From a virus (Duplodnaviria > Heunggongvirae > Uroviricota > Caudoviricetes): a DNA stretch of 44,997 bases. This document shows positions 19,701 to 22,700 of the stretch, piece after piece. Position 1 is the stretch's first letter, and each line of letters opens with the position of its first letter. Made by a program: the position numbers. The stretch lies in the IMG/VR virus record IMGVR_UViG_2917408641_000002, positions 1-44,997 of that record. One strand, written 5' to 3'.

Positions 19701-22700
19701 TCCGTAAAGGCAGGCATCAAGTTCCTGCTCCGACATGCCTGCGGGCAAAGGCCACGAAAGGCCAGCTCTCCGAAAGCGCACGAACATACTACAAACTGTT
19801 GATTTTGGTACACCCAGGCGACGCCCGGCCACAACCCGGGGTAAATGTTCTTCAAAGTGAAGACGTAAAGCTTCAGTGATCCAGGTCCGGTGTTTCATAC
19901 GATAGTGTCCATTAAAAATGATGGACATTATTTTTGTAGAGCCGGAGGAAACAGACCAGACGGTTTAAATGAGCCGGTTACCCTTAATTTCAGGTAAGTC
20001 TTATTTCATTTCTTTGCGCCACGCCCGGCGCACATCAAAAACCACAGAGCCTTTCAGGGGTGAGCTTACGGGATGGTCAGTGTGACTTTCTCTGTGGGCT
20101 GGTCACCCCCGGGCGGAGGCTCACCCACTAAAAGGAAAAGTCACGATGTTTGGTATTTTCAAAAAGAAAACCCGCAAGGCCATTACTGAAGTAAAGAAAA
20201 TGGAGAACCGCGATGCGGTGGAGGCGACCGTCTGGGGTGCGTATTCCATTGCATACGCTGACGGCACCTGTGACGCGAAAGAAATCGCGGTACTGGAGAA
20301 AACCATTGCAGCACTTCCTGCCTTTGCGCCGTTCTCCGGTGAGATTGCACAAATGAGTGCAAATATCCGCGCCCGTTATGAAGCGTCGCCGCGCTCTGCC
20401 AATGCTGAAGCCCTTCGCCAGCTGGCTGATGTTGCCGGTACTGATGACGCAGTTAATGTGCTGTGCCTGTGTCTGGATATCGCTGACCAGGATGGCATTG
20501 ATCCGGATGAAGAAGCACAGCTCAAGAAAATTGCTCAGGCGCTTCAGCTACCGCTGGAGCAGTACCTGTGAAAAGTGCGCGCCTTGTGCTGGCTGCCATC
20601 CTGCTGTTTCTGGTAGTGGCGGTGGATTTCACCGGACGGCTGATGTCGGTGCTGGCAGATGGTGTGCTGGTGGCGATGGCGCTGGTCGTGCTCCGGCCTT
20701 TACTGCGCAAATCTGAATAACACCACACAAAAGGCATCTGCGGGTGCCTTTGACGGGGTGTTTTTTACGGGCCGCTGGTGGCCCTTTTTTATTTACAGGA
20801 GAAAAAAGTATGTCTGAACCCTTATCCGGTTCCGGCACGGCTGCGGCGCTCGGCGGGGCGACGGTATTCGGGCTGTTTACCGGAACGGATTTCGGGATTG
20901 TGTTTGGTGCGTTCGCCGGGGCGTTATTTGTGGCAACAATGCCGCAGGCGCTTTCAGCCTGGCGTGTGGCGGCGCATTTTCTGGTGTCGTTCATTATCGG
21001 TGTGCTGGGCGCAGAGGTTCTGGCATCCTGGCTGGTAAAGCATACAGGGTTTGACGGAGCGCCTGTCGACGCATTGTGTGCAGTGCTGGTGTCAGTGGTG
21101 TCGGTGAAGATTCTGTCGTTCATCCACCAGCAGGATATCGCATCACTGGTGTCCGGTCTGTTCTCCCGCCTGAGGGGCGGAGGAGGCGGTAATGTTAAAT
21201 GACCTTCCCGGATTGCTGAATGTGGCGTTATGCACGGTTATCGTGCTGACGCTCTTTTTTTATCGTCGTCGTGATTCCAGACATAAACCGCTGATGTCAT
21301 GGCTGGCCTGGCTGCTGATGCTGCTTTATGCCTTTGCACCACTCAGCTATCTGTGCGGTCGCCCGTTAGCGGCGAACTGGCTGGCGGTGGGGCTTAATCT
21401 GCTGTTCTGCGTGCTGGTGATTCGCGCACGCGGGAACGTTTCAAAAATCCTTTCATTCCGGAGGTGAGCATGTCGGGTAAATTCAGATTCAGTCGTCGTA
21501 GCGAAAAAAATCTGGAGGGCGTCAAACCACAGCTGGTTGCCGTTGTTCGCCGTGCGCTGGAGCTGACGGAGGTTGATTTCGGTATTACGGAAGGCCTGCG
21601 CACGAAGGAACGCCAGAAACAGCTGGTTGCTGAAGGAAAAAGCCAGACCATGAACAGCCGCCACCTGACCGGTGATGCGGTGGATGTTGTGGCCTACATT
21701 GGCAGCCAGGTATCATGGGACTGGCCTCTGTACGAGAAAATCGCGCAGGCATTTAAGCGGGCTGCCGCAGAGCTGGGAACTGCCATCGAATGGGGCGGCG
21801 ACTGGAAAACACTGAAAGACGGGCCTCACTTTCAGTTGAAACGCTGATAACCAGGTGGGTTATGAGCAGAAAACACTGGACACACAGAATGCCGCGAACG
21901 GCGGCGAAATGGGCGCTGGTAGCGATACTGGTGCCTTTTTTATTGGTGGGATGCGTCAGCCTGGATAAGGCGCGCCAGCTTTTCGACACAGCTTCTCAGG
22001 TCTGTGAAATTGTCGACGGTGTTCGGCAGTGTCTGCAGAACTGCTCACTGACATCCCGCATCTATATTTAAGAGGGTAGATTAATGAAGAAGAAAAAGAA
22101 TCTAAATAAAAAAGATGCTGCATCAGCAAATGCAATAGCTGGCACTCAACTTAATTTAGAATGGTTCGAGAAGGTAAATTCTGAATTGTTGGCGCTGTTT
22201 GATAAGACGTGAAATTGCCGGAAGGCGCAGTTATTACTGAGTAACAGGCATTACAGCAGCCCTTCTGTGTGAGGGGCTGCGATAATGCTGTTGGCCTGAA
22301 TATCTCCATTGAAAACAGGAGGCGAAATGTCTGAGCGAAACTATGAAGCGATTGGACGCTGCGTTGTTCTGCGAAAGCGTATTGAAGAAAATCTTTGCGC
22401 GCTGCAAAAAATAAAATCGGAAATTGTTTCTGCTGATTCTCCATTTTTATTGGATGGGCGGTTGTGTGGGAGTCATTCACTGGTGCTGAGCATAGAAACG
22501 AATGCAAATCGCTGCCGTGAATTGCTTGATGAAACAATGCAGCTTGTCAGTGAACATAATCAGTACGCTGTGGCGGCGGGACTGAATGCAATACATGTTA
22601 TCCCCGAGAGAGAAACGTTTTAATCGCTGGAGAATGAAATTCCATGCCATCACGAATCCCCCGCGCATGCCGTAAGCGAGGCTGCGCAGGCACCACGACA

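Follow-up and report, generated by a model that had tools for sequence, protein, structure and literature searches.

Two overlapping genes upstream of the lysis genes

We analyzed a 44,997-nucleotide (nt) stretch of DNA from a Caudoviricetes virus (IMG/VR record IMGVR_UViG_2917408641_000002, positions 1 to 44,997), which we refer to as the window. An earlier note, made from the sequence alone, had drawn attention to a gene for a 141-amino-acid (aa) TerB-like protein followed by a 50-aa hydrophobic open reading frame (ORF) just upstream of the holin gene. ORF calling on the window showed that both ORFs are real and lie where that note had placed them (Table 1), and we use for them the names of their phage P1 counterparts, tciA and tciB. 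The two genes overlap by four bases (GTGA), with a GGAG sequence 8 nt 5' of the tciB GTG start codon and a Shine-Dalgarno-like AAGGA about 10 nt 5' of the tciA ATG. The results below make it very likely that this gene pair is a copy of the P1-type tciA-tciB accessory cassette, carried as optional cargo. The tciA/tciB family is already named, catalogued, and widely annotated, and the identity itself is not new.

Table 1. Coordinates of the tciA-tciB cassette and its surroundings in the window
Feature	Position	Strand	Description or basis
tciA	20146..20571	+	ATG start; 141 aa; TerB-fold protein
tciB	20568..20720	+	GTG start; 50 aa; DUF3927 inner-membrane protein (membrane location predicted)
Coupling junction	20556..20571	+	GGAG 20556-20559; GTG 20568-20570 over TGA 20569-20571; sequence reading
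Conserved leader (5' untranslated region) of tciA	20040..20145	+	Absent at the tciAB-less site; slow evolution
RusA/Q antiterminator ORF	14428-15387	+	Upstream
Promoter-like (pR'-like) site	15371-15399	+	Just after Q
Terminator-like (tR'-like) hairpin	15453-15472	+	Just after Q
Four tRNA genes	16458-16767	+	
IS66-family element, tnpA/tnpB/tnpC	17283..19981	-	ORFs and comparison with the uninterrupted E. coli SE11 locus
Two terminator-like hairpins, tciB-holin interval	20733-20748 and 20769-20784 with T run (to 20790)	+	Terminator scan
Phage_holin_8 holin	20810-21202		Starts ~90 nt past tciB; profile match
Phage_holin_3_7 holin	21192-21467		After the Phage_holin_8 holin
M15 endolysin	21464-21847		After the second holin

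The pair belongs to the tciA-tciB family of phage P1

The 141-aa protein matched the Pfam TerB family (PF05099) with 34.9 bits against a gathering cutoff of 24.4 (E = 2.1e-8) and PHROG 632 with an E value of 4e-65. The 50-aa protein matched Pfam DUF3927 (PF13064) over residues 4 to 48 with 53.5 bits against a cutoff of 25 (E = 2.4e-14) and PHROG 1470, annotated "TciB-like," with an E value of 2.5e-24. By BLASTP, the window TciA was 85% identical to P1 TciA over 141 aa (E = 2e-90), and TciB was 49% identical to P1 TciB over 47 aa (E = 1e-10).

P1 has the same order, tciA followed by tciB, and the same overlap of stop and start codons, with TGATG at the junction in P1 and GTGA in the window. Like the window pair, the P1 genes are accessory and nonstructural and belong to a temperate phage. 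A third small P1 gene, tciC, has no counterpart in the window: no equivalent 35-aa ORF lies 3' of tciB, where there are instead hairpins and the ribosome-binding site of the holin gene. The P1 pair lies in the C1-controlled ban operon, whereas the window pair occupies a late-operon cargo slot of a lambdoid, phiP27-like prophage, and the conserved leader that precedes tciA in the window is absent from P1.

The P1 gene names were assigned "by homology" only. RefSeq labels the pair "tellurite resistance TerB family protein" and "DUF3927 family protein," including in Escherichia coli SE11, and tciA owes its "tellurite resistance" label to homology alone. The full cassette was present in 165 of 5,426 complete E. 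coli genomes (about 3%), and some part of it was present in 388 (about 7%). A tblastn search of 72,556 plasmids found TciA homologues on 801 plasmid records, 783 of them non-mobilizable; the carriers are P1-like and ~110-kb Klebsiella phage-plasmids.

tciA and tciB are almost never apart

tciA lay directly upstream in 84 of the 86 loci that we found through DUF3927, and tciB lay directly downstream in 79 of the 80 loci found through TciA. Twelve loci with a diverged tciA (down to 75% TciA identity) keep a 50- to 54-aa ORF that overlaps or abuts the tciA stop codon, with GTGA, TGATG, or TAATG at the junction; they come from E. coli-type viral contigs, Citrobacter, Yersinia, Rosenbergiella, Buttiauxella, Nissabacter, and P1. 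There is also a second allele, a TerB protein about 40% identical to TciA, which has the same overlapping DUF3927 partner. These results show that the two genes are almost never apart and that their overlap is retained as they diverge, and they bear out the earlier note's treatment of the genes as a pair.

Several variant forms of the pair were found. Twelve loci (L034, L036-L042, L045-L047, and L057) have tciA reduced to residues 73 to 141 and an intact tciB. The shortened tciA is a 74-aa ORF that belongs to PHROG 9865 (for example, L034 3777-4150), and its 5' half is replaced by sequence that, judged by eye, looks tRNA derived. In one P1-like Logan contig, an altered stop/start junction joins TciA and TciB in frame into a single 196-aa protein, P0174. 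Either this fusion is natural and hints at a physical association of the two proteins, or it stems from a sequencing frameshift. Three other candidate fusions (P0255, P0262, and P0287) have gene calls that appear frameshifted or chimeric, and we did not use them.

TciA is predicted to be a single TerB-fold domain

AlphaFold2, run with a 40-sequence alignment, gave a TciA model with a predicted local distance difference test score (pLDDT) of 88 and a predicted template-modeling score (pTM) of 0.82. The model has a disordered basic N-terminal tail (residues 1 to 20) and a six-helix bundle (residues 22 to 132), and the sequence of the basic tail is conserved (MFGIFKKKTRKA..EVKKMENRD). The only confident PDB match of the model in a Foldseek search was 2h5n (probability 1.0, template-modeling score 0.5 to 0.6). 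By this model, TciA is a small, all-helical, cytoplasmic protein with the TerB fold. The fold agrees with the above-threshold Pfam match, and the description of the gene product as TerB-like in the earlier note holds on both counts. We found no HMMER similarity of TciA to solved TerB-family chains, either with phmmer or with the 40-sequence profile, and we therefore regard TciA as a divergent branch of the TerB superfamily. No NCBIfam equivalog was found for TciA; there was a weak match to the TerB region of DjlA (E = 0.016), whose 14.8 bits fall far under the 162-bit cutoff.

The earlier note had also described two TerB-like repeats in this protein. Each half does match the same stretch of the TerB profile, residues 1 to 80 matching profile positions 60 to 106 (E = 2e-4) and residues 81 to 141 matching positions 60 to 111 (E = 4e-3), and the halves carry the acidic DG...E motifs YADGtCDakE and DiADqDGIdpdE. 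The alignment of one half with the other was not significant, since 60 of 500 shuffles scored equally. Because the model is a single six-helix bundle and the halves cannot be significantly aligned, we interpret the two repeats as the pseudosymmetric DG...E halves of one TerB domain. We also considered a metal site formed by Cys42, Cys107, and Cys109, which are invariant in allele 1. Cys107 and Cys109 are missing from the ~40%-identity second allele, so the cysteines are not a family-wide feature, and we rejected this candidate.

TciB is a conserved hydrophobic protein

Hydropathy analysis located two hydrophobic segments in TciB, at residues 6 to 19 and 25 to 42, with a conserved VDFTG(R) turn between them. 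The protein has a conserved Asp31 in the second segment, a W/R-P at the end of that segment, and basic termini. The same core is seen throughout DUF3927: a hydrophobic stretch, VDF(T/S)(G/S), a second hydrophobic stretch with Asp-Gly, W/R-P, and basic residues. The family is small: clustering at 90% identity gave 209 clusters, and a search of 1.84 billion proteins gave 88 representatives at 50% identity. The hydropathy and charge pattern suggests that TciB forms a helical hairpin in the inner membrane with both termini inside (N-in/C-in). AlphaFold2 instead draws TciB as one continuous helix of 47 residues (2 to 48, pLDDT 93), and because of this single helix, the hairpin is a topology that we only infer. 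TciB matched no holin family, and in the Pfam search it matched only DUF3927 at E ≤ 1.

The ratio of nonsynonymous to synonymous substitution rates (dN/dS) was 0.04 to 0.08 for tciA, which shows strong purifying selection. For tciB, dN/dS against the window was 0.2 to 0.55 in 9 of 11 comparisons; in the other 2, which have a replaced C-terminal part or saturated divergence, it was about 1. An ORF of 50 to 55 aa is retained both with diverged tciA genes and with the second allele. The small hydrophobic ORF of the earlier note is thus a real gene, as indicated by its DUF3927 match, its retention in diverged loci, and purifying selection.

The cassette is optional cargo

A prophage of E. coli WR3-3 has an empty site at which the flanks are joined directly, from the equivalent of window position ~20040 to ~20712, at the very end of tciB. 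From this junction, the cassette is about 685 bp long and consists of a ~105-nt leader, tciA, and tciB. We had considered the terminator hairpins 3' of tciB as part of the mobile unit and ruled this out, since they are present at the empty WR3-3 site; the hairpins at 20733-20790 and 20016-20031 are phage backbone and lie outside the cassette. The two ends of the cassette, at 20028-20047 and 20704-20729, share an imperfect ~20-bp match (GCGCA.ATC..AA.AAC.CCACA) that occurs once at the WR3-3 empty site. The match is weak, as 51 of 1,000 shuffles scored equally, but it would fit gain or loss of the cassette through recombination of short repeats.

In this phiP27-like prophage, the cassette fills the slot that runs from the Q antiterminator and tRNA genes to the lysis cassette. 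The same slot and flanking backbone are found in phiP27, with a methylase gene and tRNA genes upstream and homologous holin, endolysin, HNH, and terminase genes downstream, and the start of its first holin gene is ~86% identical to the window at the DNA level. The cargo is different: phiP27 carries stxA2e/stxB2e in the slot. Directly 3' of stxB2e, phiP27 (L090, ~4480-4580) has a ~95-nt 3' remnant of tciB that corresponds to window positions 20626-20720, which implies that in the phiP27 lineage a tciAB cassette gave way to the toxin genes.

Dispensability and a varied location are also seen outside phiP27-like prophages. tciABC is missing from about half of one subgroup of P1-like phage-plasmids (PMC9603915), and P1 tciA, tciB, and tciC were nonessential in a CRISPRi screen (PMC10695390); the P1 tci genes are dispensable for plaque formation. 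In P1, the pair lies among tRNA genes in the C1-controlled ban operon. A Yersinia prophage has the pair in an early operon near KilA-N and Lambda_Kil genes, and a Buttiauxella P2/186-like prophage has it in an early operon between the CII (CP76) regulator and replication gene A. In Rosenbergiella the pair is near cI/cro-like and RecT/exonuclease-like genes. Another lambdoid group carries it between a DUF1133/Q-like gene and a distant Phage_holin_2_1 holin gene, and in Nissabacter it lies ~120 nt upstream of a Phage_holin_2_1 holin gene, which is unrelated to Phage_holin_8, and a lysozyme gene. There are no nearby lysis genes around the pair in P1 or at loci L006, L007, and L175. The empty WR3-3 site, the stx2e genes in the phiP27 slot, and these varied contexts all agree with the suggestion in the earlier note that the pair could be a moron.

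The leader of tciA is conserved

The noncoding sequence upstream of tciA evolves slowly. Its divergence (K) was 0.03 to 0.15, against a synonymous divergence (dS) of 0.23 to 0.80 for tciA, so that the leader changes 4 to 20 times more slowly than synonymous sites. The leader is ~105 to 131 nt long; the conserved noncoding stretch was seen over window positions 20015-20145 and at L158, L170, L172, L188, L243, and other loci. A search of viral contigs with the leader motif returned 119 loci, 115 of which have the start of a TerB gene 69 to 72 nt downstream, and 72 of these 115 TerB proteins are only 37 to 50% identical to TciA. The leader may be a regulatory 5' untranslated region or a recombination module shared between alleles.

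We found little sign of a structured RNA. The leader matched no Rfam family at the gathering threshold, and the only match at E ≤ 1 within 19930-20830 was a subthreshold suhB-like one that falls on the backbone hairpins. The minimum free energy z-score of the leader was an unremarkable -1.7, and RNAalifold detected essentially no covariation. Helices drawn by hand, including a possible pseudoknot, had two compensatory pairs among 13 close sequences, which is too thin to claim a structure. Scans for a consensus promoter or sigma-70-like site found none in the leader or in the interval between the insertion sequence (IS) element and tciA, and a relaxed scan of the regions upstream of 10 loci also found none; the leader could hold a nonconsensus promoter.

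The leader contains a G tract, GGGG at 20056-20059, that varies from 4 to 10 G among contigs. Variants were seen at L113, L086, L088, L084, L083, and L085, where the run is lengthened after a T>G change, and poly-A and poly-C runs near the G tract also vary. The G-tract variation could be a slipped-strand effect on expression or assembly noise.

Surroundings of the cassette

The endolysin gene is followed by genes for an HNH endonuclease and then for the small and large terminase subunits. The two hairpins between tciB and the first holin gene are kept across loci, with one compensatory change, and are present in phiP27 as well as in the tciAB-less WR3-3 prophage. An IS66-family element, flanked by an 8-bp target duplication (CCTTAATT) at 17275-17282 and 19982-19989, separates the tRNA genes from tciA. 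It is inserted 157 nt upstream of tciA and is part of the context, not of the cassette. The presumed late transcript would run through the element, with possible polar effects on tciAB and on the lysis and morphogenesis genes. A comparable IS66-tciA junction is present in two pig E. coli genomes.

Two further regions of the window were recorded. A 260-aa ORF at 15549-16331, just past the putative pR'/tR' sites, had no Pfam match at E ≤ 0.01; phiP27 and E. coli SE11 have a DNA methyltransferase gene at this position. An isrK-like RNA and a C4 antisense RNA are duplicated in tandem at 9610-10161, with two copies of each, all above the Rfam gathering scores, inside an ORF at 9553-10581 with Ash and Rha domains. 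The arrangement resembles the immI antirepressor control region of the P1/P7 type, here in a prophage of lambdoid appearance.

Discussion

Our preferred explanation is that the P1-type cargo cassette acts as a membrane-guarding or exclusion module and not as a lysis component or timer. Taken as a whole, we consider this explanation an even call: the identity and cargo status are nearly certain, and the protective or exclusion role is a guess, less likely than not but likelier than each alternative below. tciAB would be transcribed within the Q-dependent late operon, because the pair shares its strand with that operon, scans detected no promoter specific to the pair, and pR'-like and tR'-like sites follow Q. 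TciA and TciB would be made in coupled amounts. TciB would insert into the inner membrane as a short N-in/C-in helical hairpin, and TciA would dock at the cytoplasmic face through its conserved basic N-terminal tail, through TciB, or both. The acidic motifs of TerB domains are generally proposed to bind a divalent cation, and the two DG...E motifs of TciA could likewise be a sensor of divalent cations or of membrane state. The module would then preserve inner-membrane function in an induced or lysogenic cell under outside attack, for example by pore-forming colicins or superinfecting phages.

We favor a membrane-guarding role because TerB domains occur in the defense systems Shango, Bunzi, and Dionysus, in the last of these together with membrane proteins. 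The membrane proteins of Dionysus accompany a TerB-like protein, for which the authors of that work propose amphitropic surveillance of the membrane (on these TerB-containing systems, see PMC10952713 and bioRxiv 10.1101/2025.09.30.679545). A protective role also matches the type of phenotype that has been linked to ter clusters and to TerB-containing defense systems. Shango SngA, Bunzi BnzA, and Dionysus DinB (with DinA and DinC) resemble TciA in that a small TerB-like protein is encoded beside a membrane protein on a mobile element. The window differs in that the partner is only a 50-aa peptide and the genes lie in phage lytic operons; Shango has a helicase/ATPase and Dionysus has an MAEBL protein and a pore-forming toxin with four transmembrane helices, and none of these genes is near tciAB. 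DjlA, which has an N-terminal transmembrane helix, a TerB-like domain, and a J domain, provides an example of a TerB-like domain held against the inner membrane on its cytoplasmic side. Unlike DjlA, TciA has no J domain, and the membrane element is encoded by a separate gene, tciB. The TerB proteins of terZABCDE clusters (IncHI2 R478 and the O157 island) belong to the same Pfam family and share the helical bundle and the two acidic DG...E motifs, whereas TciA lies outside a ter cluster and has a 50-aa DUF3927 protein as its partner instead of TerC or TerD.

Several points weigh against a membrane-guarding role. A literature search returned no experiment on any TciA or TciB, and PADLOC gave no match at E ≤ 0.1 for either protein; Dionysus is newer than the PADLOC version used, and we compared it by gene content alone. 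The physical association of TciA with TciB is a prediction, and we did not use the sole in-frame fusion, P0174, as evidence for it, since it comes from a single contig and may be a frameshift artifact. The continuous TciB helix drawn by AlphaFold2 and the lack of HMMER similarity between TciA and solved TerB-family chains, both described above, count on the same side. The pair recurs just 5' of holin genes from two unrelated families, and this may have a functional reason beyond a common insertion hot spot. Finally, all of the contexts that we found are lytic-phase operons, and no promoter belonging to the pair was detected; a role in phage development therefore fits at least as well as classical lysogenic conversion.

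This last point bears on an alternative that we regard as unlikely, namely, that TciAB is a host-takeover factor in lytic growth. It might, for example, inhibit cell division (the "i" of tci) in the manner of Kil, DicB, Icd, or the Fil protein of phage 186. All of the contexts that we found are lytic-phase operons, and individual contexts point the same way: the Yersinia pair is near KilA-N and Lambda_Kil genes, the P1 pair is in the C1-repressed ban operon, and the pair in the P2/186-like prophage sits between a CII-like regulator and replication gene A, an interval that in phage 186 holds fil and dhr. A preprint on the P1vir transcriptome places tciA/B/C with icd and kilA as division-control genes, by annotation only. 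Against the takeover reading, the "inhibition of cell division" label stems from filamentation seen with whole ter clusters and not with TciA or TciB. Moreover, searches of Pfam, PHROG, and NCBIfam showed no similarity to known division inhibitors.

The earlier note had offered a lysis regulator as the other possible role of the pair, and a lysis-timing function, in which TciB and TciA would adjust when the holin triggers, either like an antiholin or by buffering the proton motive force, is in our view quite improbable. The pair shares its strand and late operon with the lysis genes, and a Phage_holin_8 holin gene is directly downstream in ~70 of the 86 loci found through DUF3927 and in 63 of the 80 found through TciA. 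The placement of the pair upstream of Phage_holin_2_1 holin genes, ~120 nt away and next to a lysozyme gene in Nissabacter and between Q and the holin gene in the other lambdoid group, adds to this case. However, adjacency to a holin gene is expected without a functional link, because the interval from Q to the lysis genes is a classical cargo slot that also holds stx, tRNA, and methylase genes. The P1 pair is in the ban operon, away from lysis genes, and Yersinia, Rosenbergiella, and Buttiauxella prophages have the pair in early regions. phiP27 has homologous holins and an endolysin with a mere remnant of tciB, so its lysis genes do without an intact tciAB. The lack of any holin-family match for TciB and the loci far from lysis genes argue against lysis timing and agree with the statement, also in the earlier note, that the pair is not a standard lysis component.

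That tciA is a genuine tellurite resistance determinant, as the passed Pfam TerB threshold and the database names "tellurite resistance TerB family protein" and "tellurite/colicin resistance protein" would have it, is highly improbable, since there is no terZ, terA, terC, terD, or terE nearby (the neighbors are IS66, tRNAs, Q, holins, and endolysin, and in E. coli SE11 the pair likewise lies outside any ter cluster), TciA has neither HMMER similarity to solved TerB-family chains nor an NCBIfam equivalog, and 783 of the 801 plasmid matches are non-mobilizable phage-plasmids and not large conjugative ter-operon plasmids. In the ter clusters of R478 and O157, tellurite resistance depends on more than one ter gene, terC and terD among them, and terB is not known to suffice by itself.

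A stronger form of the membrane-guarding reading, which we regard as a long shot, is that the leader, a TciA sensor, and a TciB effector together make up a minimal, self-contained TerB membrane-surveillance system. TciA would respond to the disturbance, of the membrane or of ions, that a superinfecting phage or a colicin brings about, TciB would be the membrane effector, either protective or abortive, and the conserved leader with its slippage-prone G tract would give switchable regulation.

As it stands, the finding matters little, since this is an already named and widely annotated accessory cassette of enterobacterial temperate phages and phage-plasmids. The cassette marks the slot that holds stx2e in phiP27 and is useful for annotating relatives of Stx phages. 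The tciAB module is under strong purifying selection, is almost constantly paired, and is mobile among at least five kinds of phage context. Because TerB domains appear in antiphage systems, a two-gene module of a TerB protein and a peptide offers an inexpensive and manageable way to learn what TerB does at the membrane. Interest in tciAB will grow only if the module proves to be a defense or membrane-surveillance system. If the minimal system is real, it would be the smallest TerB defense module known and would explain why temperate phages and phage-plasmids of the Enterobacterales retain the pair.

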